Source: an uncultured Methanosarcinales archaeon
GTDB lineage: Archaea > Nanobdellota > Nanobdellia > Woesearchaeales > GW2011-AR4
Reading direction: 5' to 3'
DNA length: 64,000 nt
NCBI GenBank assembly: GCA_964396095.1
Contig: CAYNCK010000024.1
Coordinates: forward strand, 8,079 to 72,078
Shown here: positions 3,589-40,409 of the stretch, in pieces
How positions within the stretch are numbered: the stretch's first letter is position 1
Layout: the number at the start of each line of letters is the position of its first letter
The notes under the pieces: generated by a model
The model's database searches: none
Told to the model about the DNA's origin: nothing
The model's input: only the letters and a program-made list of their open reading frames with translations
Made by a program: the position numbers and the translations under genes

Positions 3589-3642
3589 CCTGAAAATCTT
3601 TTTTACCGCAACCTTTTTAAACCGTTTATTCTTCCAAAGTAC

Positions 3643-3756: not shown

Positions 3757-3763
3757 CCTTTTC

Positions 3764-3888: not shown

Positions 3889-3987
3889 TATTGTTAATTT
3901 TAATGCAATTTATCTTTTGAATTTTATTTGGCGTGGCCAATTGTCACAGGCAGGGGGATTCATAACATTTAATTCTTTAGAATAAAT

Positions 3988-4788
3988 TTATCTCAACTTT
4001 TCCAAATCTTTCTTTGAATGAATGTGCACTTCTTTCTCAGAGCTCAAATGCCCGTTCAGCAGACCTTTCTTCGCCAATTCAGGAAATACGTTAAATTCAA
4101 GGCTTTCCCCTGAATACTCGAATATCTGGGGCTCTGTGACGAATATAGGCGAGAAAACAAGGTAGATGTCTGATTTCTTTGGCTTTTGGGTGAACGAAAG
4201 CACTTTGTTCCCTTCAACCCTGACAGTCCCCTTTTCGCTTGGCTTTGATGATGTGGTAAGCATTATTGTTGCTGTGGCGCTCTGCTTTATGTGGTCATTC
4301 CACAATTCATCTATGCTTATTTTGCCAAAAATAATGTCCCCATAAACAACAAGAAAATTAGTGCTGACTTTGCCTTTCAAATGCCTCAGAGAATCTGCTG
4401 TCCCATTGGATGATCTCTCTTCTATATAACTTATTTTAACTCCCCGGTCAGTTCCATCTTTCAGCACCTCAAATAATTTCGTCAGCAAATTATGCCTTGC
4501 AACAACAAATATTGTCTTAAAATTATTCTCCCTTAGCTTTTTAATAGCCAGCCCTATCACGCTGGAATTTTTAATTCTTGCAGTGCACATATACTCATTT
4601 CTTGAAATCCTGAGCTTTTCTTCACTGCCGCCGAGAAGGATGACTGCAGTCTTATTTTCCCCAAGAGCATTCTTCACAAGATGCTCTATTACCTGCGACC
4701 TGTTCCTTATGTATATGTTGTCTACTATTGAGTCTATATCATCAAGGATTTTCTCGTTTATTGTTATTGATATTTTGGTTTTTGCCAT
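3988..4788 (-). CDS. Ribbon-helix-helix (CopG-like) domain fused to a sugar-nucleotidyltransferase-like domain with degenerate catalytic signature
   Basis: The N-terminus KISITINEKILDDIDSIVDNIYIRNRSQVIEHLVKNAL is RHH-like. The remainder follows the NTP_transferase layout (VILLGG..., ISYIEERSSNGTADSL, FLVVYGDIIF). However GGSEEKLR replaces the canonical GGxGTRL. Confidence 0.6.
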   Translation of the reverse strand: MAKTKISITINEKILDDIDSIVDNIYIRNRSQVIEHLVKNALGENKTAVILLGGSEEKLRISRNEYMCTARIKNSSVIGLAIKKLRENNFKTIFVVARHNLLTKLFEVLKDGTDRGVKISYIEERSSNGTADSLRHLKGKVSTNFLVVYGDIIFGKISIDELWNDHIKQSATATIMLTTSSKPSEKGTVRVEGNKVLSFTQKPKKSDIYLVFSPIFVTEPQIFEYSGESLEFNVFPELAKKGLLNGHLSSEKEVHIHSKKDLEKLR

Positions 4789-16946: not shown

Positions 16947-18491
16947 TCAAACAGAACTCTCAACAGCGGCCTTTTCTCCAATATTCTTATTCAGCTTATT
17001 GCTGTATATTAAGTTATTCTTGATCTTCCTCACAGCAGACCAGACTTTTATACCGGCTTTTTTCATTATTCCTCTTGTCGGCTTTGGAAGCCATGCCCAG
17101 TAAGCGAGTGTTCCCAAAACATTGCCGAATTCCTTTCTTGCAATGTACTTTATGACAAATTTTTCGCCAATTTCTAGAGCTTTTTTTCTGTCTTCCTGTG
17201 AGAATTCCGCAGTTTCAATTATTGGCTCTCCGTCCCAGACGCCGAGGTTATTCTGGTATTCCTCTTCCGTCATTGTAAACCAGCCGTTCTTTTTTGCAAT
17301 GTCATAAAATTCAGTCCCGATATAAGGCAAGGCAGAATAAAACCTTACCTCTTCCAGTGGAAGCTCCTGCGCAAGCTTTAGCGTCTGCTTGAAATTTTCC
17401 ATGTTGTCTCCAGGCAGTCCAATTATGAAAAATCCGCCTGCAGGCAGCCCAGCTTCATGCGCAAGCTTTGCAGCCCTTTTGATTTGCTCAACTGTGGCCC
17501 CTTTTTTCATCTTGTTCAAAACATCCTGCACTCCTGACTCAATTCCAAAAGCAATGTAAATGCACCCTGCCTTTTTCATCTTCTGGAACAATTCAAGATC
17601 AGTCTTGTCAACCCTGATTCCGTTTCTCAAGTCCCACTCTATTTTCAAGCCTTTTTCCACAATAAGGTCGCATATTTTCTTGACGCGATTCATGTCAAAA
17701 TTAAATACATCATCATTGAATGCAAATCTTCTGTACCCGTAATTCTTATACCAGTGCTCAAGCTCGTTTGCAACATTTTCAGGAGACCTTGCCCGAAAAG
17801 TTCTTCCCATTGTGAGAAATATTGAGCAGAAAATGCAGCGATGAGGGCAGCCCCTTGATGTGACGATAGGTAGTTTCTTGTCCATGTATTCCTTGAGTTC
17901 GAATAAGTCAAACGCAGGCCTTGGAAGCTCGTCAAGGTTGTCAAGGAAAGGCCTTTCAGCATTAAGCACAAATTCATTTCCTTTCTTGAATCCTATGCCA
18001 AGAATATTCTCCAATGGCATACCTTCCAGAATTTCCTTCAGGCCCATTTCCCCTTCCCTTAAAACAGCAATGTCTGCGCCGGATTGTTTAAGCACTTCTT
18101 TTATTGTCGCAGAAGTGTGGGGTCCTCCGATTAAGACCTTAATATTGCTGCCGAGTTTTTTTACTTCCTTGATAAGCACGTAAACATCGTCATGCCCCTG
18201 CGTCACGGTTGTAGTTGCAAAAAAATCCGGCCTGAATTTTTTAACATAGTCAATGACATACTTGTCGTCATATCCAAATCTCATGTCAATTATTTTTGTT
18301 TCATATCCGCACAAGTCCCTTGAAACTCCTGCCAAAATTGCAATTCCGTAATGGGGGGAAGTTGGCTTGCCCATGATGCCGACAAGTCCGGGAATCACAA
18401 AAAGAATCTTCCCTTTGATTGAGGGAGCATGCAGCAAAACAGACTGTTCAGTAGAAACTTTATGCATAGGCGCATTATTGTTATCTTCCAT
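16947..18491 (-). CDS. B12-binding-domain radical SAM protein (class B rSAM), paralog 1
   Basis: N-terminal Rossmann-like region (KILFVIPGLVG ... VLIGGPHTS), the cluster motif TSRGCPHRCIFCS, then GIESG and FIIGLPGD. Confidence 0.85.
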   Translation of the reverse strand: MEDNNNAPMHKVSTEQSVLLHAPSIKGKILFVIPGLVGIMGKPTSPHYGIAILAGVSRDLCGYETKIIDMRFGYDDKYVIDYVKKFRPDFFATTTVTQGHDDVYVLIKEVKKLGSNIKVLIGGPHTSATIKEVLKQSGADIAVLREGEMGLKEILEGMPLENILGIGFKKGNEFVLNAERPFLDNLDELPRPAFDLFELKEYMDKKLPIVTSRGCPHRCIFCSIFLTMGRTFRARSPENVANELEHWYKNYGYRRFAFNDDVFNFDMNRVKKICDLIVEKGLKIEWDLRNGIRVDKTDLELFQKMKKAGCIYIAFGIESGVQDVLNKMKKGATVEQIKRAAKLAHEAGLPAGGFFIIGLPGDNMENFKQTLKLAQELPLEEVRFYSALPYIGTEFYDIAKKNGWFTMTEEEYQNNLGVWDGEPIIETAEFSQEDRKKALEIGEKFVIKYIARKEFGNVLGTLAYWAWLPKPTRGIMKKAGIKVWSAVRKIKNNLIYSNKLNKNIGEKAAVESSV

Positions 18492-26986: not shown

Positions 26987-28492
26987 TTAAGTTGAAGATT
27001 TTGCTGTACCGCCAATAAGCCTTTTTAGGCTTTTTGAGAGGAACAATGAAAAGCTTCTCTCTGTCTTTGTCTCCTGCTTTGAAGTCAAAATATTCCTCAT
27101 CATCCTTAGCTGCTTGAACGGATGGTATAAGCTCTTGTAAAAATAGAATGTCTTGTAGACTCCTGCAATCCTTTGGTTGGCAATCTCCCTGTCAGGATAC
27201 CAGTCAGGAAGATCATTTACGTTTGCGCCTGCATCCTGCTCCATCAACGCTGGATCTATGTCAGCAAAATATTTCTTTGTTATTGGAGTGTTGGGATATG
27301 GTAGCATCGGTGCAGGGCAGATTTCATCAAGGCCTGCCTTTGCCAGCCTCTTAACATAATTTGTGGTAAGTGTGTAATCCTCTTCTGTCTCCGCCTTTGC
27401 GAGTCCAGTTATGATAAAGCAGCCTGTCTTTATTCCAATCTTGTGGCATATATTGACGAGCTTTACTATAAGCTCCAAGTCAATGAACTTGCTGTAAACC
27501 TCTTTCAAAAGCCTTTGCGAGCCCGATTCAGGCGCGAAAATCAGATATTTGCAGCCGGCATCCTTGAATAATTGCAGATTTTCCTCGTTCATCTTTTCCG
27601 GCCTAACTCCGCTTGGAGTTGTCCATGTTATCTTAAGTCCCCTATTTATTATCTCTTTGCAGATTTCAACAGCCCTGCCCATGTTAAGCGTGAAATTGTC
27701 GTCGTTTATCTCAAAATGAGTAATTCCATGTTTTGTTATGCATTCCTCAATCTCATCTACAAAATTCATCGGGCTTCTTGCTCTCCATGTTCTCTGCCAG
27801 AAAACAATGCTTGCGCAGTAAGAGCATGTCAAGGGGCATCCTCTCGAAGAAGTGATTGAAGTGAATTTGTTTACAACAGGCCCGTGAGAAAATTTCCTTT
27901 TCCAGTAGTTCTCCAGGGGTATCAAGTCCCTTGCCGGGAATGGAATTTCATCAAGATTCTGCACAAATTTTGTTTTTTTATTTACCTTGATTTCCTTGTT
28001 GGAATCCATAAACGACAGCCCGTCCAATTGCGAGTAATCTTTTCCGGTTGATAGGCATTCAATTAAATCATAGCAAGTCGCTTCGCCTTCTCCAAGAACA
28101 GCAAAATTTGCGCCATGCTCAAGATAAAAATCAGGATGCATTGTTGGGTCATTTCCTCCGACAATAATTGCGGTATCCGGAAATTTTTCCCTTATCCTTT
28201 TCAGGATTTCAACATACATTCTTTGCTGGGTTGAGAAATTGGTTGCAACAGTTATGTAATCCGCCCTTGGGTTTATCTTAGAGACTATCTGATCAAAATT
28301 CAGCCCAATATAGATTATATCGCCCCACTTATTCTTCTGGAATATGCCTTCTCCAACAGCATCAATAACCTGGACATCAAAGCTTTTTCTTAAATAACCT
28401 GCAAGATATGCAACGCCCATCGGAACAGCCAAAGAAACTGTAGGTTTCTCTATTAATGGGGGGTTTATAATGGTAACATTTACATTATTCAT
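26987..28492 (-). CDS. B12-binding-domain radical SAM protein, paralog 2
   Basis: N-terminal Rossmann-like region (IIVGGNDPT), SSRGCPLTCSYCAS, APESG and FIITGL. Confidence 0.85.
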   Translation of the reverse strand: MNNVNVTIINPPLIEKPTVSLAVPMGVAYLAGYLRKSFDVQVIDAVGEGIFQKNKWGDIIYIGLNFDQIVSKINPRADYITVATNFSTQQRMYVEILKRIREKFPDTAIIVGGNDPTMHPDFYLEHGANFAVLGEGEATCYDLIECLSTGKDYSQLDGLSFMDSNKEIKVNKKTKFVQNLDEIPFPARDLIPLENYWKRKFSHGPVVNKFTSITSSRGCPLTCSYCASIVFWQRTWRARSPMNFVDEIEECITKHGITHFEINDDNFTLNMGRAVEICKEIINRGLKITWTTPSGVRPEKMNEENLQLFKDAGCKYLIFAPESGSQRLLKEVYSKFIDLELIVKLVNICHKIGIKTGCFIITGLAKAETEEDYTLTTNYVKRLAKAGLDEICPAPMLPYPNTPITKKYFADIDPALMEQDAGANVNDLPDWYPDREIANQRIAGVYKTFYFYKSLYHPFKQLRMMRNILTSKQETKTERSFSLFLSKSLKRLIGGTAKSST

Positions 28493-28535
28493 TAAGCCAT
28501 ACAGTCTTGTAATATCTTTATAAATTTTTTCATTT

Positions 28536-28549
28536 TTAACAATTGTTAA
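28536..28549. promoter_or_regulatory. Perfect 14-bp palindrome TTAACAATTGTTAA in the divergent rSAM-rSAM intergenic region
   Basis: Read directly. Related to the 16-bp motif at 28634 and 38900 (core TTAACAAT-N-GTTAA). A further half-site-like TTAATATTGTTAA lies at 28552-28564. Confidence 0.4.
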
Positions 28550-28633
28550 TTTTAATATTGTTAATCAAAACATCTAAAAACCAAAGTACTTTACCCATGC
28601 TTAAAAAACCACAGAAAAGAATTTAAATAGTAG

Positions 28634-28649
28634 CTTAACAATAGTTAAG
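28634..28649. promoter_or_regulatory. 16-bp inverted repeat CTTAACAATAGTTAAG (operator-like) upstream of rSAM paralog 3
   Basis: Identical 16-mer to 38900-38915. Arms CTTAAC/GTTAAG. Flanked by TATA-like AATTTAAATAG (upstream) and TATTTAAAA (downstream). Lies 31 nt before ATG 28681. Confidence 0.5.
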
Positions 28650-28680
28650 TATTTAAAACACAAGAGAGGTGCTTTTCAAG

Positions 28681-30096
28681 ATGAAAGTTTTACTTATAAC
28701 CCCACCATATCCAAAAGACAGGATTTTTAGGAAATCAATGAAGAATCTTGGAGCTGTATTGCCTCCTTTAGGTATAGCTTACATAGCTTCAATGCTTGAA
28801 AAAGATGGCCATAATGTGAAGATTATCGACGGCCCTGCATGGGCAACTATTCTTGGCTATGATTTTACTGATCTGGAAAGGGACATAAAGGAATTTGCCC
28901 CTGATGTTGTAGGAATTTCAGCGTCAACCTCTCAAATAGACCATGCAAAAAGGGCAATTTCAATCGCAAAATATGTAAACAAGAAATGCGTTGTCATACT
29001 TGGAGGCACCCTTATAAGCGCTGACCCAAAGGCTTTGCTGAAATTCGAGCAGGTTGATTTTGGAGTCTACGGGGAAGCAGACTTGACCTTTTCTGAAATT
29101 TTGAAAACTGTTGAAGCCAAAAAGTCTGTTGAAGGCATGGAAGGGGTAATCTGGAGAGAAAATGAAGATGTAAGATTCCTAAAGCCAAAGGTAATTACAG
29201 AATTAGACCAGATTCCAATGCCTGCAAGGCATCTTTTAAGGATGGAAATATATAGGCCATCTCCTGCAAATTACAGAAGATTGCCAGCCACAACAATAAT
29301 GACATCAAGAGGCTGCCCTTACCAATGCATTTTCTGCTCAAGGCCGACAGAAGGCACTGCATTTCGGGCGCATTCTGCTGAAAGGGTTGTTGCTGAAATA
29401 GAGCAGCTCACAACAAAATACGGCATAAAAGACCTGCAGATTTTTGACGACACATTCAGCTTGATTCCAAGCAGAGTTGAAAGAATTTGCAAATTGCTTA
29501 TTGAAAAAAAGATTGACATAAGCTGGAACTGCATGACCAGAGTTGACAAGATAAATCCCGAATTGCTTGCATTGATGAAAAAAGCAGGCTGCTACGAAAT
29601 TGGCTTTGGAATCGAGTCAGGCTCTGACAGGATATTGCAATTCATCAAGAAATCAACAACAACAGAGCTGATAAGGAGGGGAGTCAAAATGACAAAGGAA
29701 GCTGGAATTGATGTCAGGGGATTTTTCATGATTGGCTTTCCTACAGAGACAAGACAAGAGATTCTTCAGACAATCAGCTTTGCCAAAGAGCTTGATGTTG
29801 ATGTTGCTCAGTTCATGGTTTCAACTCCATTCCCCGGAACTGAAATGTGGGAGATAGCAAAGCAGAATGGAAATATAAATGATGATGACTGGAACAGCTT
29901 CACGTTTTACGCTCCAGACAAGATGCCATTCTCTTCAAATTTATTGAGCGACAATGAACTGCTTTCACTTTACAAGAAAGCCTACAAGTCATATTACTTA
30001 AGGCCAAAGTTCATGCTTAGGCAGCTGATGAAAATGAAATCTCCAGCAGATATAAGCAGGTACTGGCTTGCAGCAAAAGGAGTCCTTGGATGGTAG
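28681..30096 (+). CDS. B12-binding-domain radical SAM protein, paralog 3
   Basis: MKVLLITPPYP, ILGGTLIS, TSRGCPYQCIFCS, GIESG and FMIGFPTE. ATG at 28681, with GAGAGGTG ~12 nt upstream, is preferred over GTG at 28669. Confidence 0.85.
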   Translation: MKVLLITPPYPKDRIFRKSMKNLGAVLPPLGIAYIASMLEKDGHNVKIIDGPAWATILGYDFTDLERDIKEFAPDVVGISASTSQIDHAKRAISIAKYVNKKCVVILGGTLISADPKALLKFEQVDFGVYGEADLTFSEILKTVEAKKSVEGMEGVIWRENEDVRFLKPKVITELDQIPMPARHLLRMEIYRPSPANYRRLPATTIMTSRGCPYQCIFCSRPTEGTAFRAHSAERVVAEIEQLTTKYGIKDLQIFDDTFSLIPSRVERICKLLIEKKIDISWNCMTRVDKINPELLALMKKAGCYEIGFGIESGSDRILQFIKKSTTTELIRRGVKMTKEAGIDVRGFFMIGFPTETRQEILQTISFAKELDVDVAQFMVSTPFPGTEMWEIAKQNGNINDDDWNSFTFYAPDKMPFSSNLLSDNELLSLYKKAYKSYYLRPKFMLRQLMKMKSPADISRYWLAAKGVLGW

Positions 30097-30105
30097 ATAA
30101 TTAAA

Positions 30106-30372
30106 TTATTTATATGCCCTGTCATGATGCTCAAATTCTACTAATTGAACTGCATTTCTTTCTTTATCTATTTTGAAAATCAAAACAAAAGAGCCCGAGA
30201 TATGCACTCTTCTTAAATGCTGCATTGGAGATTTTAATGGTTTGTAATGATGAGGATTTTGCAAAATCTCATTAATCTTCTTATTGATTGCATCAGGAGT
30301 TTTTTTATCTTTTTTGTATAATTTACCAAAAGCTTTATTTAAATTTTCAGCAACTTCCAAAGAATAAGCCAC
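30106..30372 (-). CDS. RelE/ParE-family type II toxin
   Basis: 88 aa with PHHYKPLKSPMQHLRRVHISGSFVLIFKIDKERNAVQLVEFEHHDRAY, the typical RelE-like C-terminus. The GTG start overlaps the antitoxin TAG by 1 nt. Confidence 0.8.
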   Translation of the reverse strand: MAYSLEVAENLNKAFGKLYKKDKKTPDAINKKINEILQNPHHYKPLKSPMQHLRRVHISGSFVLIFKIDKERNAVQLVEFEHHDRAYK

Positions 30373-30605
30373 TAGCCAACACCATACTGCTCGGCGAAAT
30401 TCCTTACCTTGACAAATTTGCCCTTCTCTGCCTTCTTTATCCTTTCAATGAACTCCGGCTTAAGCTCCGGCTCATTTGCATTTTCTATATAATACTCTAT
30501 AACCGCTTTAACAGCTTCTGACTTGCCCTTCAATCCCAATTTAGCCTTGACTATATTAAGCACCCTGTTTTCATTTTCATCAATTTCAATCAATGCCTGC
30601 ACCAT
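30372..30605 (-). CDS. Antitoxin-like small protein (DUF2683-like)
   Basis: 77 aa. MVQALIEIDENENRVLNIVKAKLGLKGKSEAVKAVIEYY resembles the archaeal DUF2683 pattern as I recall it. Immediately upstream of the RelE-like toxin and overlapping it. Confidence 0.6.
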   Translation of the reverse strand: MVQALIEIDENENRVLNIVKAKLGLKGKSEAVKAVIEYYIENANEPELKPEFIERIKKAEKGKFVKVRNFAEQYGVG

Positions 30606-30615
30606 ATAACCTCAC

Positions 30616-30647
30616 CTAAGTTTGTCTAAGTTGGACTTATTTATAAA
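30616..30647 (-). promoter_or_regulatory. Promoter/operator region of the RelE locus: TATA-like box plus tandem AACTTAG repeats
   Basis: Minus-strand reading: TTTATAAAT (30639-30647), then AACTTAG-ACA-AACTTAG (30616-30632), then GGTGAGGT (30609-30616) 3 nt before ATG 30605. Confidence 0.4.
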
Positions 30648-30771
30648 GGTTGCTGTTTTTAGTGACGAATATAGAATGGCTAATCCTATGGATCAAGAGG
30701 GATATAAGAATATCGATTATGCCAACTTCAACAAATAAACTTTTAAATATCCCTTATGTTTCTCCTGTATT

Positions 30772-31506
30772 ATGAAAAAGCCAGACATTACAATGTTTTT
30801 TCCTGCTTACAATGAAGCTGAAAATATACCAAAAATGCTCAATTCTGCAGTTAAAGTCCTGAAAGATGTTGCAAATGAATATGAAATACTTGTTGTTGTT
30901 TACGGAGGCTCAACAGACGGAACTATAGATACCGTGAAGAAATTTGAGAAAAAGAATAAAAAAATAAGGCTTCTGATTCAGCCAAAAGAAAAAAAAGGGA
31001 TAGGATATGCAAAGATTATGGGATTTACAAATGCAAAATACCCTTATATATTTTATGCTGATTCTGACAACCAGTTTGACCTGAATGATTTCAGGAAATT
31101 TCTGCCTTACATAGGAAAGTACGACATAATTGCAGGATACAGGATTGAAAGGAATGACCCAAAGACAAGAATAGTAATCTCGAAAATATATAATTCTGTA
31201 ATGAAGGTTTTGTTCGGCGCAAAGGAAAAGGACTTGGACTGCGCATTCAGGCTTGTCAGCAAAAAGGTTATAAACAGCATAAGCTTGACATGCTCGACAG
31301 GACTGGCGACGACAGAGATACTTGTGAAGGCAAGGAAAAAGGGCTTTAGTATAAAAGAAGTCGGAGTCAACCATTATCCGAGAATCTTGGGCAAGCCGGT
31401 TTTCGAGTGGGAAATCGGATTGAATTTGCCGAAGCCTAAAGTTGTAATGAATATTTTGAAGGAAACGGCAAAGCTGTGGATTGACATGCGCATAAGGGGA
31501 AAATAA
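30772..31506 (+). CDS. GT2 polyprenyl-phosphate sugar synthase-like glycosyltransferase
   Basis: TMFFPAYNEAENI, GGSTDGT, FYADSDNQF, IIAGYRIER and LDCAFRL. Confidence 0.85.
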   Translation: MKKPDITMFFPAYNEAENIPKMLNSAVKVLKDVANEYEILVVVYGGSTDGTIDTVKKFEKKNKKIRLLIQPKEKKGIGYAKIMGFTNAKYPYIFYADSDNQFDLNDFRKFLPYIGKYDIIAGYRIERNDPKTRIVISKIYNSVMKVLFGAKEKDLDCAFRLVSKKVINSISLTCSTGLATTEILVKARKKGFSIKEVGVNHYPRILGKPVFEWEIGLNLPKPKVVMNILKETAKLWIDMRIRGK

Positions 31507-31507
31507 A

Positions 31508-31681
31508 ATGGCAGGATTAATCTGGCATGCAAGGAATTTTTTCAGGCTCCTGTGGAATGTTCACATTCGCCATAGATGCCCCGTCTGCAAGAAAAAAATA
31601 ATCGAAACAAATTATCCGGAAGAGTTCATCCAGCAGGCAAAATGCTCTGACAAAAAGTGTGGCTGGGGATGGAACAGATGA
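31508..31681 (+). CDS. Unlisted 57-aa ORF with zinc-ribbon-like CxxC...CxxxxC motif
   Basis: My translation: MAGLIWHARNFFRLLWNVHIRHRCPVCKKKIIETNYPEEFIQQAKCSDKKCGWGWNR. It starts 1 nt after the GT2 stop. Its TGA overlaps the ATG of the next gene (ATGA at 31678-31681). It is below the 60-aa cutoff of the ORF track. Confidence 0.5.
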   Translation: MAGLIWHARNFFRLLWNVHIRHRCPVCKKKIIETNYPEEFIQQAKCSDKKCGWGWNR

Positions 31682-32241
31682 GCCTTTTTGAATCAGCAAT
31701 AAAATCCCTCCTCCTCATAAAGGCAGCCAAAATTAATGATTGCTGCAGTGAATTTCTCAGTGGAAAAGTTCTTGATGTGGGCTCTGGAAGATGCTATATT
31801 GCAGACGAAATACTGTCAAAAAACAACCTCAGTGTGACATGCCTTGACGTTAATGATTTAAGCCAGACAAAAATGAAGGTTGTTGTCTATGACGGGTTGA
31901 ACTTTCCTTTCAAAAACAACGAGTTTGACTCTGCATTGGTGGCCTATGTTTTCCACCATTGCGAGGATCCAATAAAAGTTCTGAAAGAAGTTATCAGGGT
32001 CTGCAAAGGCAACATAGTAATTTTCGAGGACACAAAACCATCCTTATTCACAAATTCAATGGATTTTTTGGCAAACAAGATAAGGGGAGTTGAAACTCCG
32101 TTTAAGTTCATGACAGAAAAGCAATGGCTGGCCATTTTTAAAAAGTTAAATTTAAAAGTAATGGCAGTTAAGCACAAGGTAGAGCAGGAGTGGTTTTACC
32201 CATTGGTGGAGCATACAATGATAGTTGTAAGGAAAAAATAA
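31678..32241 (+). CDS. Class I SAM-dependent methyltransferase
   Basis: VLDVGSGRCYIA, TCLDVN and FDSALVAYVFHHCEDP. ATG at 31678 (ATGA coupling) is preferred over GTG at 31657. Confidence 0.8.
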   Translation: MSLFESAIKSLLLIKAAKINDCCSEFLSGKVLDVGSGRCYIADEILSKNNLSVTCLDVNDLSQTKMKVVVYDGLNFPFKNNEFDSALVAYVFHHCEDPIKVLKEVIRVCKGNIVIFEDTKPSLFTNSMDFLANKIRGVETPFKFMTEKQWLAIFKKLNLKVMAVKHKVEQEWFYPLVEHTMIVVRKK

Positions 32242-32251
32242 CTAAGTTTAG

Positions 32252-32376
32252 TTTAATTGTTAGGAATTCCCCATCACTTGCGATGGATGGGTTTTTAAAA
32301 CCAATACACTAAACTTTTATGGGAATTCCTAACATTAAAAATACCCCGCCCCTTAGGGCGGTTGGGATTTTTATTT
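32252..32376 (+). repeat. Copy B of the ~125-nt structured intergenic repeat
   Basis: A perfect 13-bp stem GTTAGGAATTCCC / GGGAATTCCTAAC encloses CCATC-ACTTGC-GATGG. Then CCGCCC-CTTA-GGGCGG is followed by TTGGGATTTTTATTT. Begins ~10 nt after the methyltransferase stop. Confidence 0.6.
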
Positions 32377-32778
32377 GATTTTAACAATGTAATAAATAGG
32401 CGAGGTGGCTCGACTTGGCAATAGGAGAGACGCCGAGCACTAAATATTGTGAGCGAAGCGAACAGATTAAAAATAATTCAAAGTAAGATACAATCAAATT
32501 TTGTAAATAATTTTCCACAAATTAAATATCCTTACTTACTGTCTGCCTGGACATGTAGGAAATGAAACATTTCCGAGCACACTCAAAAATTTTCAATTTT
32601 CGATTATTGGGCACGTCCAATATCACTCAAAGTGAGATTTGAACGTTAAGTGAGAATAAATAAAATCCATAAACGATTGAAACAAACAATATACAATAAA
32701 TAATAAATAAACTCATTAAAAAATCAATAAACAAAATTCAAATTAAAATATACAAATCAAAATTAAAAAACCAATAAA

Positions 32779-34248
32779 ATGAAATCACAAAAGGACTTTC
32801 CGGCAATTGATGCTTATGAATCGATGTTTGGGAGAAAGGTTGAAGAAACTGAAAGCTTCATGCCGAGCATTCTTCCATTGAACCTAAACAAGCAGCTGAT
32901 CCATTCAGTGATGGGGAAAGCCAAAAAGGAAAAGAAATGGGTTCTTGCTTTTGTCATAGGCACAAAGCCCTGCTTCTACAAGTTCTACGGCTCGATTGTT
33001 GCTGCGAACAAGGCAGGAATTCCAAGCTTCATAATAAATTCAAACCAGCATTACGATGATGTCTTGACTCATGGGCTTACAGAATTCAATCTAAAAAGCC
33101 AGGTTGCATGCAACCTATCTATAAGGGGCGACTTGGCTCAAAAATCTGCAGAGCTTATGCTGAAAGTAAGCTGGCTTGCACGCTACCTAAAGAATGAATG
33201 GCCCGATGTGACTGTTGTCCCTGTTGTCTTAGGTGACACAATTATGACGGCGATTGTTCCTGCTGCGTGGATGTTTGCACGGCTTGAAAAAGCTATACAG
33301 GTTGAAGCCGGACTGAGGTCAATGGCTCCTGAAGTCATGAAAAGATACAAGGATGTTGACATTGAGACTTTCATAGACCAGCAGTTTTACGGCAAATGGC
33401 TGTTGCTGAGGAACGAGCCGTTTCCGGAGCAATGGGATACCTTTACATCAGCTGCAGGGAGCGAATATTTGTTTGCTCCTGTAAATCTCAACAGAGACCA
33501 TTTGATAAGGGAAGGCTATCCTGAAAAAAACATCTGGGTTACAGGCGGGGTTGTTGTTGACGCGCTTGAGCTCAAAAGAAAAGAGAAATCTGAAAAAAGC
33601 GTTTTTAATGTATATCCTCAGCTTGAAAAAGGAAAGTGGCTCAGGGTTGACATTCACAGAAGGGAAAATTTGACTCCGAGAAGGTTCAAGTCAATTATAG
33701 GGGCAGTTGAAGAACTTGTCATGAAAGGGTACAATCTGAATTTTATCGAGATGAGCGCAACAAGAAGCGCTCTTGACTTCTACAAAATGAGAGGGGTAAT
33801 AGAAAAGCTCAAGAAAAAGAAGAACTTTTTGCATACTAATGTATGGCCCGAATATGCCCATGTCATTGAGTTTTTTCAGTCAAAAAACTGCCTTGCTGCA
33901 TTAACAGACTCCGGAGGCGTTCAGGAGGAGCTCAACCTAATTGGAAAAGCATGCCTGACCTGCAGGCTGAGCACCGACAGGCCCGAAACAGTTTTTGATG
34001 CAAAAAGCAACATTCTATCTCCGCCAATAAGCAAAGAGTACCTTGTAAAAATCATCAAGCACATAAATTCTGATGAGGAGCTTGTAAAAAAAATGAACAT
34101 GCCAAAAAAGCTTTACGGCAACAAGGCAGGCCAAAAAATAATATCAATTGTTTCTGAACTTATAAAAAAGAAGGACCATCCGTTTAAATGGGCACACGAA
34201 GTGCTGGGATTGTGGACAGAAGAGGAAAAAGGTGTTAGATATCTCTGA
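32779..34248 (+). CDS. UDP-N-acetylglucosamine 2-epimerase family protein (WecB/WbpI-like) with N-terminal extension
   Basis: FVIGTKPCFYK, the hallmark LTDSGGVQEE, and STDRPE; 489 aa, long for the family. Confidence 0.8.
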   Translation: MKSQKDFPAIDAYESMFGRKVEETESFMPSILPLNLNKQLIHSVMGKAKKEKKWVLAFVIGTKPCFYKFYGSIVAANKAGIPSFIINSNQHYDDVLTHGLTEFNLKSQVACNLSIRGDLAQKSAELMLKVSWLARYLKNEWPDVTVVPVVLGDTIMTAIVPAAWMFARLEKAIQVEAGLRSMAPEVMKRYKDVDIETFIDQQFYGKWLLLRNEPFPEQWDTFTSAAGSEYLFAPVNLNRDHLIREGYPEKNIWVTGGVVVDALELKRKEKSEKSVFNVYPQLEKGKWLRVDIHRRENLTPRRFKSIIGAVEELVMKGYNLNFIEMSATRSALDFYKMRGVIEKLKKKKNFLHTNVWPEYAHVIEFFQSKNCLAALTDSGGVQEELNLIGKACLTCRLSTDRPETVFDAKSNILSPPISKEYLVKIIKHINSDEELVKKMNMPKKLYGNKAGQKIISIVSELIKKKDHPFKWAHEVLGLWTEEEKGVRYL

Positions 34249-36505
34249 TTTCAATCCGTCTAAAAAACCAAGGCAGCATATTTTTGCAGTTTTTCTGTTG
34301 TTTGCAGTATCCTTGATTTTTTTTCATAGTATAATCTCTAATAGTACCTTGCTGGATAATGTCCATCACATAAACAATCTTGCATTTCTCTCTTACAGCA
34401 TAAAAGACGGGATTTTCAACCATCACGAATTTCCGTTATGGACTCCTTATTTCTTCAGCGGCATTCCTTTGATAGCAATTCCGGAGCATTACATCTTTGA
34501 CATGAACCTTGTTTTAATTCTTCTCTTCAGAGATATTTATCTCGCAATGAACATGTCAGTCATCATTTATTTTTTTGCAGCAGGGCTTGGAATGTATTTT
34601 CTAGTTTTTGAGATGATAGGCAGCAAAAAATCTGCATTTATATCTGCCTTGATTTATATGCTAAATGGATTCATGCACACCTTTTTGATTGGCGCCCATA
34701 TAAACCTCCTTGAAAGCTATGCATTGATTCCGTTTGCAGTTTTATTCACCATAAAGGCATTGAAGGAAAAGGAATGGATCGCATATTCTATTCTTGCAGG
34801 GGCTTTCCTTGCAATGCAGATTTTGATGGGTGGCGTTATTTTTTTCTTTTACACGGCTGTATTGCTTGGATTGCTGATTGTATATAATTTTGTTTTAAAT
34901 CCAAATCTTAAAAATATTAAAAGGATAACATCTGCTGTGGCCATTATTGCTTTTGTCATGCTCGGTCTGTCAGTAGTTAAATTATTGCCGACAATAGAGT
35001 TTGTCAGGCAGTCATCAAGGGCATCGGCAGTCAGCTATGGGGAATACCTTGGCAACCCTTTGAATATTAAGAATGCATTTAATATTTTTATTTATAACAT
35101 CGGCTACAATGATATTTCAGGAGCTCTTGGAATTGTTGGGTTTGCACTTCTTCTGCTTGGATTGATGTCGTTCAGGAAAAAATACCTGATTTTTTCAATA
35201 ATTATTGTTGTTCTTGGCATCTTGCTTGCTGCAGGCACCCCTATTGCTAAATTATTCTTCAATTATGTTCCAGGATTCTCGCAGATGAGGCACATTGAAC
35301 GAGCCCTTGTGTTTTTTGTTTTGGGAAGCTCGGTGGCAATAGGATATGGTTCATTAAATTTGTTCTCAAAATTGCAAAACAAAAAAATTTCAAAATTTAT
35401 TATTAATGCAGTTTTTATTTTGCTTGTTGTTGCTATATTTTCAGAAATGTTTCTATTTCAAAACAAATTTGCAGTCGTGAAAGTTGTCAATCCAGATGAT
35501 ATCGGGCTTTTGCAGCACATTAGCAAAGACAAGGATTTGTTCAGGACAATGAACCTTGGATTAAAGGAGATTGTTGGCACTTCAGGCTATGTTTACTATG
35601 CTCAAAAAGGAATTGAAGATGCGAAAGGGGGAGGGGGCATCTGGACAGACGATTACATAAATTACATTGCCATCTCTGAGCAGCTTAACCCTTCAAGATT
35701 ATGGGGATTAATAAATGTCAAGTATGTCGTTTCAGACAATCCGGTCGATATTCCAAATATTGAGTTCATAGGAAAATTCAATGAATGCAAGGATTGCGGA
35801 ATCTGGCAGGCATTCGGGCCTTACCTGTACCTCAACAAGGATTATGTTGAAAAAGCGTATTCAACTGACAAGGCAGTCCTAGTTGTCGGGGATGGCAAAT
35901 CAGCAAAAGATACTATTTATTTTCTAATTTCAAGAAATCCAAACCCATCTAATAGCGTTATAATTCAGGGGGGCGTAAGCATTAATGATTATTCCTCTCA
36001 AGATTTAAGAAAATTTTCTGCAATAATCCTCGGCAAAGGCTCTGCTGATCAAAACAGCCTTGCATTGCTCAGAAATTACCAGGCATCCGGAGGAACAATT
36101 CTTCCTGATGTCCTAAATGACAAGTCGGTTATTGACCAGAATGACATTAATGATTTGTTCCATAAAATAAACGGCACCCATGAGCATATTGATATAAAAT
36201 CATTTTCCTATAATGATGCTGCACTGGACATTTCGGGCAAGAAAGGTTTTGTCGTTTTTGGGGAAAGATATGCATTCTTTCCCGGCTGGAAGGTAATGCT
36301 TGACGGCAAAAATGCAGAAATCATGAAGGCAAACAACTATATCACCAGCATTTACATTGACGGGAATTATAATGAGATGAAATTCCAATACAAGCCAGCT
36401 TCATTTTATAACGGGCTTTACATAACTCTTGCAGCTTTATTTTTAATTATTATTTATTTTTCATTTTTAGCATACAAAAGAATTAATGCTAAAAAAGCCC
36501 TGTAG
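34232..36505 (+). CDS. YfhO-like GT-C membrane glycosyltransferase
   Basis: HHEFPLWTPYFFSGIPLIA resembles the YfhO N-terminal signature. It has more than 10 N-terminal helices, a large soluble domain and a final C-terminal TM helix (LYITLAALFLIIIYFSFLAY). The only in-frame start is GTG at 34232, overlapping the epimerase by 17 nt. Confidence 0.65.
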   Translation: MLDISDFNPSKKPRQHIFAVFLLFAVSLIFFHSIISNSTLLDNVHHINNLAFLSYSIKDGIFNHHEFPLWTPYFFSGIPLIAIPEHYIFDMNLVLILLFRDIYLAMNMSVIIYFFAAGLGMYFLVFEMIGSKKSAFISALIYMLNGFMHTFLIGAHINLLESYALIPFAVLFTIKALKEKEWIAYSILAGAFLAMQILMGGVIFFFYTAVLLGLLIVYNFVLNPNLKNIKRITSAVAIIAFVMLGLSVVKLLPTIEFVRQSSRASAVSYGEYLGNPLNIKNAFNIFIYNIGYNDISGALGIVGFALLLLGLMSFRKKYLIFSIIIVVLGILLAAGTPIAKLFFNYVPGFSQMRHIERALVFFVLGSSVAIGYGSLNLFSKLQNKKISKFIINAVFILLVVAIFSEMFLFQNKFAVVKVVNPDDIGLLQHISKDKDLFRTMNLGLKEIVGTSGYVYYAQKGIEDAKGGGGIWTDDYINYIAISEQLNPSRLWGLINVKYVVSDNPVDIPNIEFIGKFNECKDCGIWQAFGPYLYLNKDYVEKAYSTDKAVLVVGDGKSAKDTIYFLISRNPNPSNSVIIQGGVSINDYSSQDLRKFSAIILGKGSADQNSLALLRNYQASGGTILPDVLNDKSVIDQNDINDLFHKINGTHEHIDIKSFSYNDAALDISGKKGFVVFGERYAFFPGWKVMLDGKNAEIMKANNYITSIYIDGNYNEMKFQYKPASFYNGLYITLAALFLIIIYFSFLAYKRINAKKAL

Positions 36506-36507
36506 CT

Positions 36508-37410
36508 TCAAATTGATTTTAAAATTCCTTCCTTAAAGCCCGTGAACACGAAATTCAGGTCTTTTTTAATTTCTGAATTGTCAAGTTTTTCCCTCAGAGG
36601 AAAATACCTTAACTGCTGCGTTGTCAGGCTCGGGTTTGGAACAATTATCTCGTAAAAAGCAACAGCAGGCTTCAGCAGAAGCATCGGAACATGAATTTTT
36701 ATTACTTTTTTATCCATGGCATCAGCAATCATATCAATAATTTCATTTAGCGTAATCGCTTCATCACAGCAAGCATTGTAGGTTTTTTTCTTTTTTAAAA
36801 CAAGGCATTTAATTATTATTTCGACAATATCGTTCACAAAAACCGGCTGGAAAATATAATCTCCTGTGCCTATTACGGGAATAATTCTTGATTTTTTTAC
36901 CATTCCCGCAAGCTCGATGATGAATTTGTTGTCGCCTTTGCCGTAAATAACTGTCGGCCTTAATATTGTATAATTGATTTCGGATTTTTTTATTTCAATC
37001 TCAGCATCATGCTTGCTTTTGCCATACTCGGTCATTATTTTCCTTCCTGCCAAATCACTGCTTATGAAAATGAAATTATTGATTTTATTTTTTTTGGCAA
37101 TTCTCAGCAGGTTTTGCGTGGATTTCACATTAGAGTCAAGATAATCCTTGAAAGAATTTGATTTTATTATTCCTGCCAGGTGAATGATGCTAGAAATTTT
37201 TATTTTTTCAAGCGATTTTTCCAGCATATTGAAGTCAGTTAGCTGGCAAATAATTACTTTTATTTTATTGACTTTAAGATATTTTATGAATTTTTTGTCT
37301 GAAGATTCCCTCAGGATGCAGCATAGCTCATATTTTTCCCCGACAAGCTTTGAAATTAAATTCCTGCCAACAAAGCCGGAAGCCCCAGTGACTAAAATCA
37401 TGGTATTCAC
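36508..37410 (-). CDS. NAD-dependent epimerase/dehydratase (extended SDR)
   Basis: MILVTGASGFVGRNL and YGKSKHDAE (YxxxK). 4-nt overlap with the upstream rSAM gene. Confidence 0.8.
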   Translation of the reverse strand: MNTMILVTGASGFVGRNLISKLVGEKYELCCILRESSDKKFIKYLKVNKIKVIICQLTDFNMLEKSLEKIKISSIIHLAGIIKSNSFKDYLDSNVKSTQNLLRIAKKNKINNFIFISSDLAGRKIMTEYGKSKHDAEIEIKKSEINYTILRPTVIYGKGDNKFIIELAGMVKKSRIIPVIGTGDYIFQPVFVNDIVEIIIKCLVLKKKKTYNACCDEAITLNEIIDMIADAMDKKVIKIHVPMLLLKPAVAFYEIIVPNPSLTTQQLRYFPLREKLDNSEIKKDLNFVFTGFKEGILKSI

Positions 37411-38855
37411 AATTGCTTTATCAAAACACCGACATCCTTTAAAAATCTCCCGTTCAGAACTTCTCTGATCAAAAATCTCGGGCTGAAATAAAACCTGTTG
37501 AATGCGCTGGTGACTTCCTTCTCAAGATATTCCTGGGTTATTTCGTCAGATACCTGCATTGCGGCGCTGTATCCCCCAAGCATGTCAAGAGTCTCTGACT
37601 TAAGCCATTTGTTTTCTTTTGCCATGTCATAAAGCTGCGTGCCGGGAAAAGGGGTTGCAATCTTGTATTCCACCTGGCTCGGCAGCAATTTAAGGCTGAA
37701 ATCAATTGTTTCCTTGATTGTCTGCTTTGTCGACCCGGGTAATCCAAGTATGAAAAAGCACGTTGTTCTTATTCTGTTTTTGTGCAGCAGCATTACTGTC
37801 TCAAGAATCTTGCCAGTATCCAATGGCTTCCTGTTGATAAGCTTCAGTATTTCCGGATGTATATCCTCTACGCCAAGATTGACACATTCGCATCCCGCTT
37901 TTGCAAGAAGCTCGATGGTTTCTTTTTTCAGCAATTCTGGCCTAGTCTCGAATGCAAACCCTACTTTTAGCTTGCTTTCAATCAAAAGATGGCACAAATC
38001 CTCAACTCTTTTCTGGTTCAGCGAAAACAAAGGATCCCTGAAGAAAAATCCTTTTGCGCCAAATTTTTCATAATCATACTTCATCTCATCAAAAATATTT
38101 TTTGCATCCCTTGCTCGCCACTTCAGCCCCTGGTTTGCAGGATATGGGCAGTACCCGCATCCGTAAGGGCAGCCTCTTGAAGCCTGGATTGTAACTAACG
38201 GTGTTTTTGAAACCATGGGAAAGTATCTGTACTTTTTGTATGGAAACAGGCTCCAGTCAGGGAAAGGCAATTCTTCAAGCTGCTCTTTCTCCAGCCTTCC
38301 TGACTGCTCTGTCTTTACAACTTCGCCTTTTTCTACATAAGCAATGTTTGAAATATTTTTTAGATTTTCACCGTTGCAGATATTTGCAATTGAAGTTTCA
38401 ACCTCTCCGAGAATTCCGATGTCAAAATTCGGCATGAGAAGATTTGGCCTTTCATTTATCATTTCCCCTTCAACAATTATCTTGACATTTTTACAGCTGT
38501 CCTTTATTTGCTTTGCAACAATATCCCTTTCGAATATAAAGCAGCTTGCAGAGCATGCCATAACAGCATAATCCGGCTTGAAGGCAGTTATTTTTGGCAT
38601 TATATCGTCTAATTTCAAGTCCTCTGTTGCGGCATCTATCACCAAAAGCTCGAATCCTTTCTGCTTTAGTATTGTTGCTGCATAAACAAGCTGTAATACA
38701 GGAATATGCACATAAGAATTCTTCATCTTGGTAACCATTGTAGAAAGAATGTTGGAGCTGAGGCTATTCTTGACACCCATCCCGCCCATCAAGTCCCTGT
38801 TGATATGGTTTTCATCAGGGCTCGGAGGGTTTAAAACAAGCACTTTAGCTGCCAT
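37407..38855 (-). CDS. B12-binding-domain radical SAM protein, paralog 4
   Basis: AAKVLVLNPPSP, an N-terminal Rossmann-like region, ASRGCPYGCGYCPYP, GVEDI and FILGLPGS. ATG at 38855 is preferred over 38894. Confidence 0.85.
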   Translation of the reverse strand: MAAKVLVLNPPSPDENHINRDLMGGMGVKNSLSSNILSTMVTKMKNSYVHIPVLQLVYAATILKQKGFELLVIDAATEDLKLDDIMPKITAFKPDYAVMACSASCFIFERDIVAKQIKDSCKNVKIIVEGEMINERPNLLMPNFDIGILGEVETSIANICNGENLKNISNIAYVEKGEVVKTEQSGRLEKEQLEELPFPDWSLFPYKKYRYFPMVSKTPLVTIQASRGCPYGCGYCPYPANQGLKWRARDAKNIFDEMKYDYEKFGAKGFFFRDPLFSLNQKRVEDLCHLLIESKLKVGFAFETRPELLKKETIELLAKAGCECVNLGVEDIHPEILKLINRKPLDTGKILETVMLLHKNRIRTTCFFILGLPGSTKQTIKETIDFSLKLLPSQVEYKIATPFPGTQLYDMAKENKWLKSETLDMLGGYSAAMQVSDEITQEYLEKEVTSAFNRFYFSPRFLIREVLNGRFLKDVGVLIKQL

Positions 38856-38899
38856 TTTGTTTTGAAATAATTGAAAGAGAGATACACACAACATCTGCC

Positions 38900-38915
38900 C
38901 TTAACAATAGTTAAG
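38900..38915. promoter_or_regulatory. 16-bp inverted repeat CTTAACAATAGTTAAG (operator-like) upstream of rSAM paralog 4
   Basis: Identical to 28634-28649. It lies 44 nt upstream of ATG 38855. On the minus strand, TTTATAAATA lies 12 nt further upstream. Confidence 0.5.
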
Positions 38916-39272
38916 CACGGCAAGTGTATTTATAAAGTTTGTGATAGGCATCTGTAATAATAGGAAGTTTTAAATAAATGCAGATTGGAATTAATTCACT
39001 GCAAGCTCTGTACCAGAATTCAAGCGAGGCGATTGTAAATGCTTTGGTTGTGAATAATATTAATCCTTTGAATGTTTCTCGGCAGCTTAACAACACGCAA
39101 GAACTAATCCAGTCAACACAAGGATTATATCTGAACACATCCGAGCAGGCCTTTGTGATTATCGAGAGCAATTTCTCCAATTCTATTTTCTTTCTGAGGA
39201 ACGCTTCAAAGCTCATTGTTTTTTCCCATTTCATGACTGTCTTTAGGCTAAAATCAGAAAGATTTATATACT

Positions 39273-39308
39273 TCCGTAAAAACGGATTATATAATCCGTA
39301 AAAACGGA
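39273..39308. promoter_or_regulatory. Operator/promoter of the MNT-HEPN locus: two TCCGTAAAAACGGA inverted repeats around a TATA-like centre
   Basis: TCCGTAAAAACGGA occurs at 39273-39286 and 39295-39308. Together they create the perfect 18-bp palindrome ACGGATTATATAATCCGT (39282-39299). The site ends 11 nt before ATG 39320. Confidence 0.6.
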
Positions 39309-39319
39309 ACACAATAAAA

Positions 39320-39940
39320 ATGCTTACAAAACCGCAGATAAGGATATTCGGGCAATTTTTGAAGAATGTATTCGCTGAATATACTTACAAGGAAATAAAG
39401 GAGATGTCCAAAGAGAAATCAAGCGACACCTTCCATTGCGCAATACAGAAATTCAAGGACGAGGGGCTGGTGAATGAAAAGATAATCGGGAAATCAAAGC
39501 TCTATTCTATTGCGCTTTCAAATGAAGCAAGTTATAATTATCTGGCAATAGCTGCCATGGGAAGGCTTAACAAGCAAGCTAGGTTAATCTTGCAGAAGCT
39601 AACTGAAGAAATAAACAGGTACACCTTATTTTACTCTCTAGTTGTTTTCGGCTCTTATTCAGACGGCACCCAAGATAAAAAATCTGACTTGGACATAGCA
39701 ATTATAATTGAATCAAAGAAGAAAGAGCACGAGGTCAAGACGGCTATTAACTCAATAGCTAAAATTTCACTCATAGAGCTAGACTGCCATGTCATAACAA
39801 AAGAGGAGTTTCTTGAAATGCTAAAAGCAAGCTATGAAAACCTTGGCAAGCAGATAGCAAGGAAAAACCTTCCAATCCATAACAATTATATATTCTATGC
39901 AATAATCAAAGAGGGAGTTGAAAATGGATTCAGACATTAA
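39320..39940 (+). CDS. Minimal nucleotidyltransferase (MNT) with N-terminal wHTH-like domain; antitoxin-type partner of HEPN
   Basis: The NTase signature VVFGSYSDGTQDKKSDLDIAII. The N-terminal ~90 aa are helix-turn-helix-like. Overlaps the downstream HEPN gene. Confidence 0.75.
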   Translation: MLTKPQIRIFGQFLKNVFAEYTYKEIKEMSKEKSSDTFHCAIQKFKDEGLVNEKIIGKSKLYSIALSNEASYNYLAIAAMGRLNKQARLILQKLTEEINRYTLFYSLVVFGSYSDGTQDKKSDLDIAIIIESKKKEHEVKTAINSIAKISLIELDCHVITKEEFLEMLKASYENLGKQIARKNLPIHNNYIFYAIIKEGVENGFRH

Positions 39941-40409
39941 ACTGTTCATAGAAAGGTCAAAGAATGAAATGGACCTGGCAAATGTTGTTTACATTGTCAC
40001 AGGCAACAAGAGGATGCAGATAGAGGAATTTCATCTTGACAGTGCGCAGACATTCTACAGCGGCGTCATTGCCCATTCCTATTATTCAATATTTTATGCA
40101 GCTAAAGCCTATCTTTTGATGAAAGGCATAAAGACAAGGCTGCCAAGCGAGCATAAGAAAACTTTCGACCATTTCAGGGATTTGGCATCAAAAGGCGTGA
40201 TAAAAAAAGACCTTATCAAAATCTATGAGCAGGAATACATCAAGGCAGAGGAACTGCTCAGGATATTCAAGTCTGAAAAAGGCAAGAGAGGGCATTTCAC
40301 ATACCAAAGAATAGCCCAGGCAAACAAGGAGCCGTCTGACATCAGCATGAAGAATGCAGGAATTTTCTTTAAGCACATATACAATCTCTGCGAAAAGCAC
40401 ATCGCATAA
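39924..40409 (+). CDS. HEPN domain protein (toxin-type partner of MNT)
   Basis: The helical pattern AHSYYSIFYAAKAYLLMKGI ... SEHKKT is HEPN-like as I recall it. The gene pairing with an MNT supports the call. The start could be TTG 39918 or ATG 39924. Confidence 0.65.
   Translation: MDSDIKLFIERSKNEMDLANVVYIVTGNKRMQIEEFHLDSAQTFYSGVIAHSYYSIFYAAKAYLLMKGIKTRLPSEHKKTFDHFRDLASKGVIKKDLIKIYEQEYIKAEELLRIFKSEKGKRGHFTYQRIAQANKEPSDISMKNAGIFFKHIYNLCEKHIA

Follow-up and report, generated by a model that had tools for sequence, protein, structure and literature searches.

Palindromic sites at three B12-binding radical SAM promoters of an archaeal glycan island, and their recurrence before an HTH-Cys regulator family and iron-sulfur genes

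The stretch of DNA analysed here (64,000 nucleotides (nt), hereafter the window) is a glycan-biosynthesis island that carries GT2, GT4, PMT_2, GT9, methyltransferase, epimerase, sugar-nucleotide and flippase genes. Its best protein and DNA relatives are metagenome-assembled genomes (MAGs) of Woesearchaeota/Nanoarchaeota (DPANN). Five paralogous genes for B12-binding radical SAM proteins (rSAM1 to rSAM5) lie in the window, and the promoters of three of them (rSAM2, rSAM3 and rSAM4) each contain a short palindromic site. These sites, named O2, O1 and O3, are the subject of this study. A previous annotation made from the letters of the window alone (the sequence-only reading) had taken them for the operators of a regulator dedicated to part of the rSAM set. 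The genes, sites and promoter elements are as follows (aa, amino acids).

16947-18491, minus strand: rSAM1
26987-28492, minus strand: rSAM2, B12-binding radical SAM protein of 501 aa (Pfam), divergent from rSAM3, with a 78% identical ortholog in the related locus L001
28517-28524, minus strand: TATA box of rSAM2, palindromic, TTTATAAA, with a BRE-like GAAAAAA on the minus strand
28536-28549: O2, candidate operator, perfect palindrome TTAACAATTGTTAA, 11 nt upstream of the rSAM2 TATA box
28551-28564: former "half-site" TTTAATATTGTTAA, 3 mismatches to the core, probably non-functional
28622-28629, plus strand: TATA box of rSAM3, TTTAAATA, behind an A-rich BRE-like stretch (28614-28621) and 5 nt before the core of O1
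28634-28649 (core 28635-28648): O1, candidate operator, CTTAACAATAGTTAAG, between the TATA box and the predicted start of rSAM3
near 28652, plus strand: predicted transcription start of rSAM3
28665-28672, plus strand: Shine-Dalgarno-like GAGAGGTG, before the rSAM3 ATG at 28681
28681-30096, plus strand: rSAM3, B12-binding radical SAM protein of 471 aa (Pfam PF02310, PF04055)
36508-37410, minus strand: NAD-dependent epimerase gene (Pfam), overlapping rSAM4
37407-38855, minus strand: rSAM4, 482 aa (Pfam)
38900-38915: O3, candidate operator, second CTTAACAATAGTTAAG on the plus strand, which reads CTTAACTATTGTTAAG in the direction of rSAM4
38929-38936, minus strand: TATA box of rSAM4, TTTATAAA, preceded by CACAAAC and 14 nt before the core of O3 (38914-38901)
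53714-55258, plus strand: rSAM5

The promoter geometry was read from the sequence, and transcription starts were placed at the usual archaeal distance from the TATA box. The promoters look archaeal, with an A-rich BRE (the TFB recognition element) followed by TTTAAATA or TTTATAAA. The sequences and coordinates of the two identical 16-mers and of the perfect palindrome agreed with the sequence-only reading, as did the distances of 31 nt from O1 to the ATG of rSAM3 (28681) and of 44 nt from O3 to the ATG of rSAM4 (38855, minus strand). The palindromes are of the operator type. O1 and O3 follow the TATA box in the classic repressor position before the predicted start, and the predicted start of rSAM4 (~38906) would fall within the O3 palindrome itself. 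O2 lies upstream of the BRE and TATA box of rSAM2. The ATG of rSAM2 (28492) is ~24 nt downstream of the TATA box and the predicted start is near 28494, so its transcript is probably leaderless. The same promoter arrangement is found at the rSAM2 ortholog of L001. The rSAM4 and epimerase genes (36508-38855) form a probable two-gene operon under O3, and this gene pair recurs in four other loci (L207-L210).

The frequency of the sites in the window was compared with expectation. Allowing at most 1 mismatch, the 14-nt core TTAACAATTGTTAA has 3 matches in the window, where 0.08 would be expected; a count of 3 was reached in 0 of 100 dinucleotide shuffles. The mismatch scan of the window found no core site with 2 mismatches, and the matches with 3 mismatches (at 5155, 15373, 43625 and elsewhere) were at background level. 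A weight matrix built from independent sites ranked O1, O2 and O3 at the top of the window, and only these three exceeded the mean best score of shuffled sequences. One of 30 shuffles scored 15.8, beating the 13.1 of the third site, whose score was lowered solely because its flanks are G+C-rich. All three sites are intergenic, stand beside TATA boxes and belong to promoters of rSAM genes, and only 3 of the ~55 genes of the window carry one. The scans found no further site in the window; in particular, none lies upstream of rSAM1 or rSAM5, as the sequence-only reading had noticed. The half-site-like element TTTAATATTGTTAA beside O2, which that reading had added to the set, was rejected. It is not conserved in L001, the closest relative, and its weight-matrix score of 3.9 is below those of the shuffles.

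Exact 16-mer repeats are common in the window (23 in total, ~15 independent, several of them mere A/T-rich coincidences), so the 14-nt core is the informative statistic. O1 and O3 are each one base away from a perfect palindrome and are oppositely oriented relative to their own genes (centre AATA versus TATT). It is therefore partly by coincidence that they are identical on the plus strand. The five rSAM paralogs are only 24-36% identical pairwise (27% between rSAM3 and rSAM4), and the surroundings of O1 and O3 showed no similarity past the shared 16 nt. This indicates that the shared motif is not a relic of duplication.

The promoters of orthologous rSAM genes were then compared. The rSAM3 orthologs in Woesearchaeota/Nanoarchaeota MAGs were 65-91% identical to the window protein, and the palindrome was kept in 7 of 11 promoters, that of the window counted. 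The six other positive loci were L001 (91% identity; a Woesearchaeota MAG with contig JAHFQA010000038), L082 (85%), L083 (84%), L003 (83%), L081 (82%) and L004 (81%). They carry TTAACAAT[AT]GTTAA at 1-6 nt past a TATA box, which is TTTAAATA in five of them and TTTAAATG in L004. When the seven promoters were aligned, only the A-rich BRE, TTTAAAT (the first 7 bases of the TATA box) and the palindrome were invariant. The palindrome was always 1-6 nt from the TATA box, but 18 to 121 nt from the ATG, depending on the locus. The upstream neighbour also varied (a divergent rSAM2, a co-directional GT2 gene or a divergent winged helix-turn-helix (wHTH) gene), and each positive locus of ~20 kb contained a single match to the palindrome. 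Hence the check proposed with the sequence-only reading, on orthologous rSAM promoters, came out with the palindrome kept and the flanks diverged. A TATA box does adjoin the site, as had been claimed; the one that serves rSAM3 is the upstream TTTAAATA, and the tatttaaaa past the palindrome is not conserved in orthologs. In L083 the 120-nt leader past the site (9880-10000) holds more palindromes (ATGACA..TGTCAT and AGACAACAATTGTCT).

O2 is kept in L001 (at 4087), the one rSAM2 ortholog compared. For rSAM4, the palindrome was kept in 4 of 6 distinct lineages, with one degenerate copy in addition. The identical 16-mer stands before the ortholog in L001 (90% identity), CTTAACTATCGTTAAG before those in L207-209 (77%) and CTTAAATATTGTTAAG before that in L211 (83%); the degenerate copy is TAAACAATGGTTAG in L210 (75%). 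The order of TATA box and then palindrome is kept in L001, L207 and L211. The flanks of the positive loci are unrelated to each other in the rSAM3 and rSAM4 sets alike.

Metagenome contigs were scanned for TTTAWAWA-N(0-14)-TTAACWATWGTTAA, and at least 120 loci were found. Among the matches listed, a gene of one protein family, here called HTH-Cys after its helix-turn-helix (HTH) domain and conserved cysteines, begins directly after the palindrome in 24 of 122, and 39 loci hold a member of the family, which in some cases is divergent from the gene behind the motif. Of 20 regulator genes, 13 have their ATG 21-23 nt behind the TATA box, counted from its end. This spacing suggests that the regulator genes are leaderless and that the operator fills the gap between TATA box and start. 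The palindrome itself ends 1-13 nt before their ATG. In eleven further metagenome loci, a gene for the cysteine desulfurase IscS lies directly behind the regulator gene, usually followed by one for the scaffold IscU.

Other genes preceded by the motif were those for SufBD (L127), a leaderless class-V aminotransferase (L183), the iron permease FTR1 (L185), an Fe/Mn superoxide dismutase (L162), a ferredoxin (L138), a DUF362 protein, M28 peptidases and one B12-binding radical SAM protein (L169). Five loci that are nearly identical to one another each have the 8-oxoguanine glycosylase gene (Ogg) behind the motif and a family member in divergent orientation. Near the homology-chosen regulator gene of L204 (see below) lie genes for anaerobic ribonucleotide reductase with its radical-SAM activase, rubrerythrin and ferredoxin-type proteins. 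Together, these genes point to iron-sulfur (Fe-S) biogenesis, iron and oxidative damage as an indicative common theme. These results do not support the notion of a regulator dedicated to part of the rSAM set. The same TATA-proximal palindrome most often precedes an HTH-Cys gene heading iscS-iscU, and it also occurs before the SufBD, ferredoxin, FTR1, superoxide dismutase and Ogg genes. The regulator probably serves other genes besides those of the rSAM set.

A separate group of matches shares the near-identical promoter TTTAAATATTTCCTTAACAATAGTTAAT (L113, L120, L139, L168, L175, L179, L181, L184 and L192). No open reading frame (ORF) of 70 aa or more was found within ~180-300 nt downstream in these loci, and in L175 a DUF362-PKD protein of 730 aa begins at +186. 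A long leader or an RNA gene may thus follow the operator.

The HTH-Cys proteins are 107-140 aa long (~120 aa). Their N-terminal part reads ..PQEIEVWYILPAIRKELA..GLxQKEIAKLLGITEAAVSQY..KR, and their C-terminal part, a helical domain, contains C-x-[IV]-H-x(8-11)-C-x(2-5)-C, in short form C-x2-H...C-x2-C. HTH_3 (PF01381, Cro/C1) was matched by 56 of 65 members at E ≤ 0.001 (best 3e-8), with many matches just under the gathering score of 23 bits. None of the 65 matched Rrf2 (PF02082). In the numbering of the member P0173, C99, C112 and C115 are invariant and H102 is nearly so, some members having Cys in place of His. The AlphaFold2 model is of high confidence (pLDDT 88, pTM 0.82) and all-helical. 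No Pfam or NCBIfam model spans the whole protein, NCBIfam giving only sub-threshold Tfx and PRK matches, and searches of solved structures by sequence and by fold returned only generic Cro/XRE matches (all Foldseek E values ≥ 0.78). A profile search gave at least 2,795 family clusters at 90% identity from Woesearchaeota/Nanoarchaeota, and the family is common in Woesearchaeota MAGs. The source names of its members are only "transcriptional regulator", "helix-turn-helix domain-containing protein" or "hypothetical protein". The best-scoring relatives (P0121-P0141) have 214-237 aa, double the usual length, and from length alone this suggests tandem copies of the module (a covalent dimer).

The association was also examined in the reverse direction. 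Three members (P0173, P0194 and P0170) were chosen by protein homology, blind to the motif, and their loci (L204-L206) were inspected. In 3 of 3, the regulator gene is the first of an operon with IscS (Aminotran_5) and IscU (NifU_N) genes, and in 3 of 3 the palindrome lies between TATA box and ATG, in tandem in two loci and as a symmetric variant in one. In L204, TTAACAATTGTTAA is followed directly by TTAACGATTGTTAA and then by the ATG; in L206, TTAACAATAGTTAA is followed by TTAACTATAGTTAA. In L205, the symmetric variant TTCACAATTGTGAA (TTCAC...GTGAA) stands at 5982-5995, upstream of the P0194 gene. The recognition helix of P0194 reads IAESAVSQY, against [VL][TS]EAAVSQY in the others. The altered helix and the altered operator may be a co-variation of specificity, seen in a single case. 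The searchable literature, which omits many subscription papers, gave no description of this regulator or operator, also when the literal motif was searched for, and a paper on the ISC system of Methanosarcina makes no mention of such a regulator.

On these data, we consider it fairly probable that the palindromes are operators of a dimeric transcription factor, most likely of the HTH-Cys family, which would tie the rSAM genes to Fe-S or redox status. A dimeric HTH protein as the binder is suggested by the dyad symmetry of the sites, by their place in the promoters and by the symmetric variant; the repeated association of motif and family, in both directions, argues for HTH-Cys. Encoded at the head of a regulator-iscS-iscU operon whose promoter carries the palindrome, the regulator would control its own synthesis. 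At rSAM3, the bound factor would occupy the space between TATA box and start, and at rSAM4 it would cover the start. In both cases, recruitment of RNA polymerase would be blocked and the gene repressed; we infer this from the position of the sites, by analogy with archaeal repressors that bind between TATA box and start. At rSAM2, with its site upstream of the BRE and TATA box, the factor might either activate transcription or hinder TFB and TBP. The three Cys and the one His probably bind an Fe-S cluster or a metal. Expression of the Fe-S-dependent, oxygen-sensitive B12-radical-SAM glycan genes would in this way be coupled to Fe-S, iron or redox status. A bolder version, which we put forward tentatively and hold to be possible, is that the family is an undescribed Fe-S or redox sensor widespread in archaea (mainly DPANN), a convergent analogue of IscR, whose regulon has expanded to B12-rSAM genes for surface glycans. 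If this is true, the cell-surface chemistry of DPANN symbionts would be coupled to Fe-S, iron or oxygen status.

Several points weigh against this reading. The pairing of regulator and operator rests on association and on the logic of autoregulation. The Cys/His site might hold an Fe-S cluster, zinc or nothing, and regulation may likewise have either sign. No family member was found by tblastn or hidden Markov model search in the window or in the rSAM-selected loci L001-L083, so that regulator and target were never seen in one genome. The wider target list was drawn from motif-selected loci and most of its entries are single observations, so it is only indicative; the five Ogg loci, being near-identical, are not independent. 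In addition, the motif is missing from one rSAM3 ortholog of 85% identity (L002) and from all those of 73% identity or less (L005-L007, 68-73%). It is also missing at the 56% identical rSAM4-like gene of L212/L213, which lies inside an operon and has no promoter of its own. rSAM genes are thus tied to the motif only within a fairly narrow clade.

The sites might instead be bound by another regulator, one dedicated to the glycan island, and the missing HTH-Cys gene in the window speaks for it. One candidate is the product of 3988-4788, which the sequence-only reading had proposed as a regulator because of a ribbon-helix-helix (RHH) fusion. This protein is an NTP_transferase, the RHH matches of its N-terminal 48 aa are weak and sub-threshold (E 0.025-0.044), and it has no link to the motif. 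The other is an ArsR-type wHTH protein in L004 (75 aa, HTH_5, E 3.5e-5; 3599-3826, minus strand). Its gene is divergent from the rSAM3 ortholog and shares with it the 93-nt intergenic region that holds the palindrome. However, the window and the other loci gave no homolog of this protein by tblastn. Recurrence with the motif is seen for HTH-Cys (39 loci and 3 of 3 motif-blind loci) but for neither of these candidates, and a regulator dedicated to the island would leave the same site before iscSU, SufBD and superoxide dismutase genes unexplained. We therefore regard this alternative as unlikely. In L004, DUF1326/DUF2182-like genes lie behind the wHTH gene.

The palindrome could also be a core-promoter element read by the basal machinery, for instance by a particular TFB or TBP paralog, or an initiator-like element, given that it always stands beside a TATA box and at many unrelated genes. 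However, basal elements are fixed in position, whereas the palindrome stands anywhere from 0 to 14 nt from the TATA box and, at rSAM2, precedes it. The dyad symmetry and the variant TTCAC...GTGAA fit a dimeric HTH protein better, and the site is carried by only 3 of ~55 genes in the window. This explanation seems to us quite improbable.

Two further explanations are very improbable. The sites might be left over from a mobile element or a duplicated promoter, or mark a recombination site, since the identical direct 16-mers, 10.3 kb apart, bracket 28634-38915 like repeats flanking a cassette and toxin-antitoxin modules are nearby. But the similarity stops at 16 nt, the adjoining rSAM proteins are only 27% identical, and each site travels with its own gene without the partner site (L081-L083 and L003 for rSAM3; L207-L211 for rSAM4). 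Little can also be said for an RNA hairpin in the 5' leader that acts on translation or stability. Stems of 5-7 bp are possible and O1 and O3 reach -6.3 and -9.3 kcal/mol. Yet these stems are weak; the sites begin 1-14 nt past the TATA box, mostly upstream of the expected start; the transcripts of the regulator genes are leaderless, with the ATG 1-13 nt behind the site; O2 reaches only -1.5 kcal/mol, no better than shuffled sequences; and the orientation relative to the gene is not kept. Chance in A/T-rich DNA, for which the ~15 independent exact 16-mer repeats could be cited, is the least credible of all, because the core is far in excess of expectation, all three copies stand in promoters of one gene family, and the sites are kept across genomes with unrelated flanks.

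Some neighbouring features of the island were also recorded. The palindromic TATA box of rSAM4 (38929-38936) could also fire rightwards. To its right, an ORF of 107 aa without a Pfam match (38978-39301, plus strand) occupies most of the 464-nt gap between rSAM4 and a nucleotidyltransferase gene; it is overlapped by an ORF of 133 aa on the opposite strand and may not be a gene. The nucleotidyltransferase gene (39320-39940, plus strand, 206 aa, within 39263-40409) has an NTP_transf_2 domain confirmed by Pfam. Its N-terminal ~87 aa look wHTH-like by eye, with a Pfam match that is only sub-threshold (Mnd1 HTH, E 0.029), and its partner gives a weak HEPN match (20.4 bits against a cutoff of 22 bits). 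Two tandem palindromes TCCGTAAAAACGGA stand immediately before the nucleotidyltransferase ATG and are probably the own operator of this nucleotidyltransferase/HEPN module. In L082, an MNT-HEPN pair follows immediately after the rSAM3 ortholog.

In the window, rSAM3 and the next GT2 gene are separated by genes for a ParE-family toxin (88 aa) and a DUF2683 antitoxin (77 aa) (30106-30605, minus strand). L001 holds only ~286 nt at this place, so the module looks recently inserted. A 5S rRNA gene (3642-3758, plus strand; Rfam, 69 bits) stands isolated in the island. A non-coding stretch of ~155 nt from its 3' end (3744-3897) recurs 28.5 kb away at 32232-32384, where it follows a methyltransferase gene (31657-32241). 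The two copies are 76-78% identical and contain the G+C-rich hairpins CCCCGCCC..GGGGCG. The repeat could be a shared terminator, a processing element or a small RNA.

To our knowledge, gene regulation in DPANN archaea has hardly been explored, and we found no archaeal regulator of Fe-S biogenesis comparable to IscR or SufR in the searchable literature. Small archaeal proteins with an N-terminal HTH do exist, such as Tfx of Methanothermobacter (TIGR00721). However, the match of the HTH-Cys family to Tfx is sub-threshold (16.8 bits against a cutoff of 60.25), and Tfx lacks the Cys/His motif. The archaeal repressors MDR1, Phr, NrpR and TrmB bind between the TATA box and the start. Like their operators, the dyad sites described here lie at about -20 to +1, where a bound protein would be expected to block RNA polymerase after TBP and TFB have bound. 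The protein families and motifs are different, and in our case the mechanism is suggested by position only. SurR of Pyrococcus furiosus is a redox switch with a CxxC motif that activates or represses according to the position of its site relative to the BRE and TATA box. It resembles the HTH-Cys proteins as an archaeal regulator with Cys residues and short palindromic sites, and the sites downstream (rSAM3, rSAM4) and upstream (rSAM2) of the TATA box suggest a position-dependent dual mode, as in SurR. However, SurR is a winged-helix protein of ~230 aa with the motif GTTn3AAC, and the HTH-Cys family has no relation to it in sequence or fold.

The closest parallel is IscR of Escherichia coli, encoded in iscRSUA, a member of the Rrf2 family whose [2Fe-2S] cluster is held by three Cys and one His. 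As with IscR, a small regulator gene heads an operon for a cysteine desulfurase and scaffold and has an operator in its own promoter, and the apparent regulon combines genes for Fe-S biogenesis with genes for Fe-S enzymes. The HTH-Cys family likewise has a motif of three Cys and one His, a resemblance that is a lead and not a test. In contrast to IscR, the DNA-binding domain is of the Cro/XRE type and not an Rrf2 winged helix, and, unlike IscR sites, the operator is TTAACAATTGTTAA in an archaeal TATA/BRE promoter. The HTH-Cys family would therefore be a functional analogue of IscR rather than a member of the Rrf2 family. We regard the regulator family and its operator as new; their presumed task is a familiar one, carried out in archaea that have received little study, and the unexpected part is the extension to radical SAM genes for glycan tailoring. 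If this is correct, B12-radical-SAM genes for glycan modification join an Fe-S or redox regulon, and the economy of cofactors is linked, unexpectedly, to cell-surface decoration in host-attached organisms. The operator, the candidate protein family and the target promoters are all defined, which makes the proposal testable in vitro without culturing.

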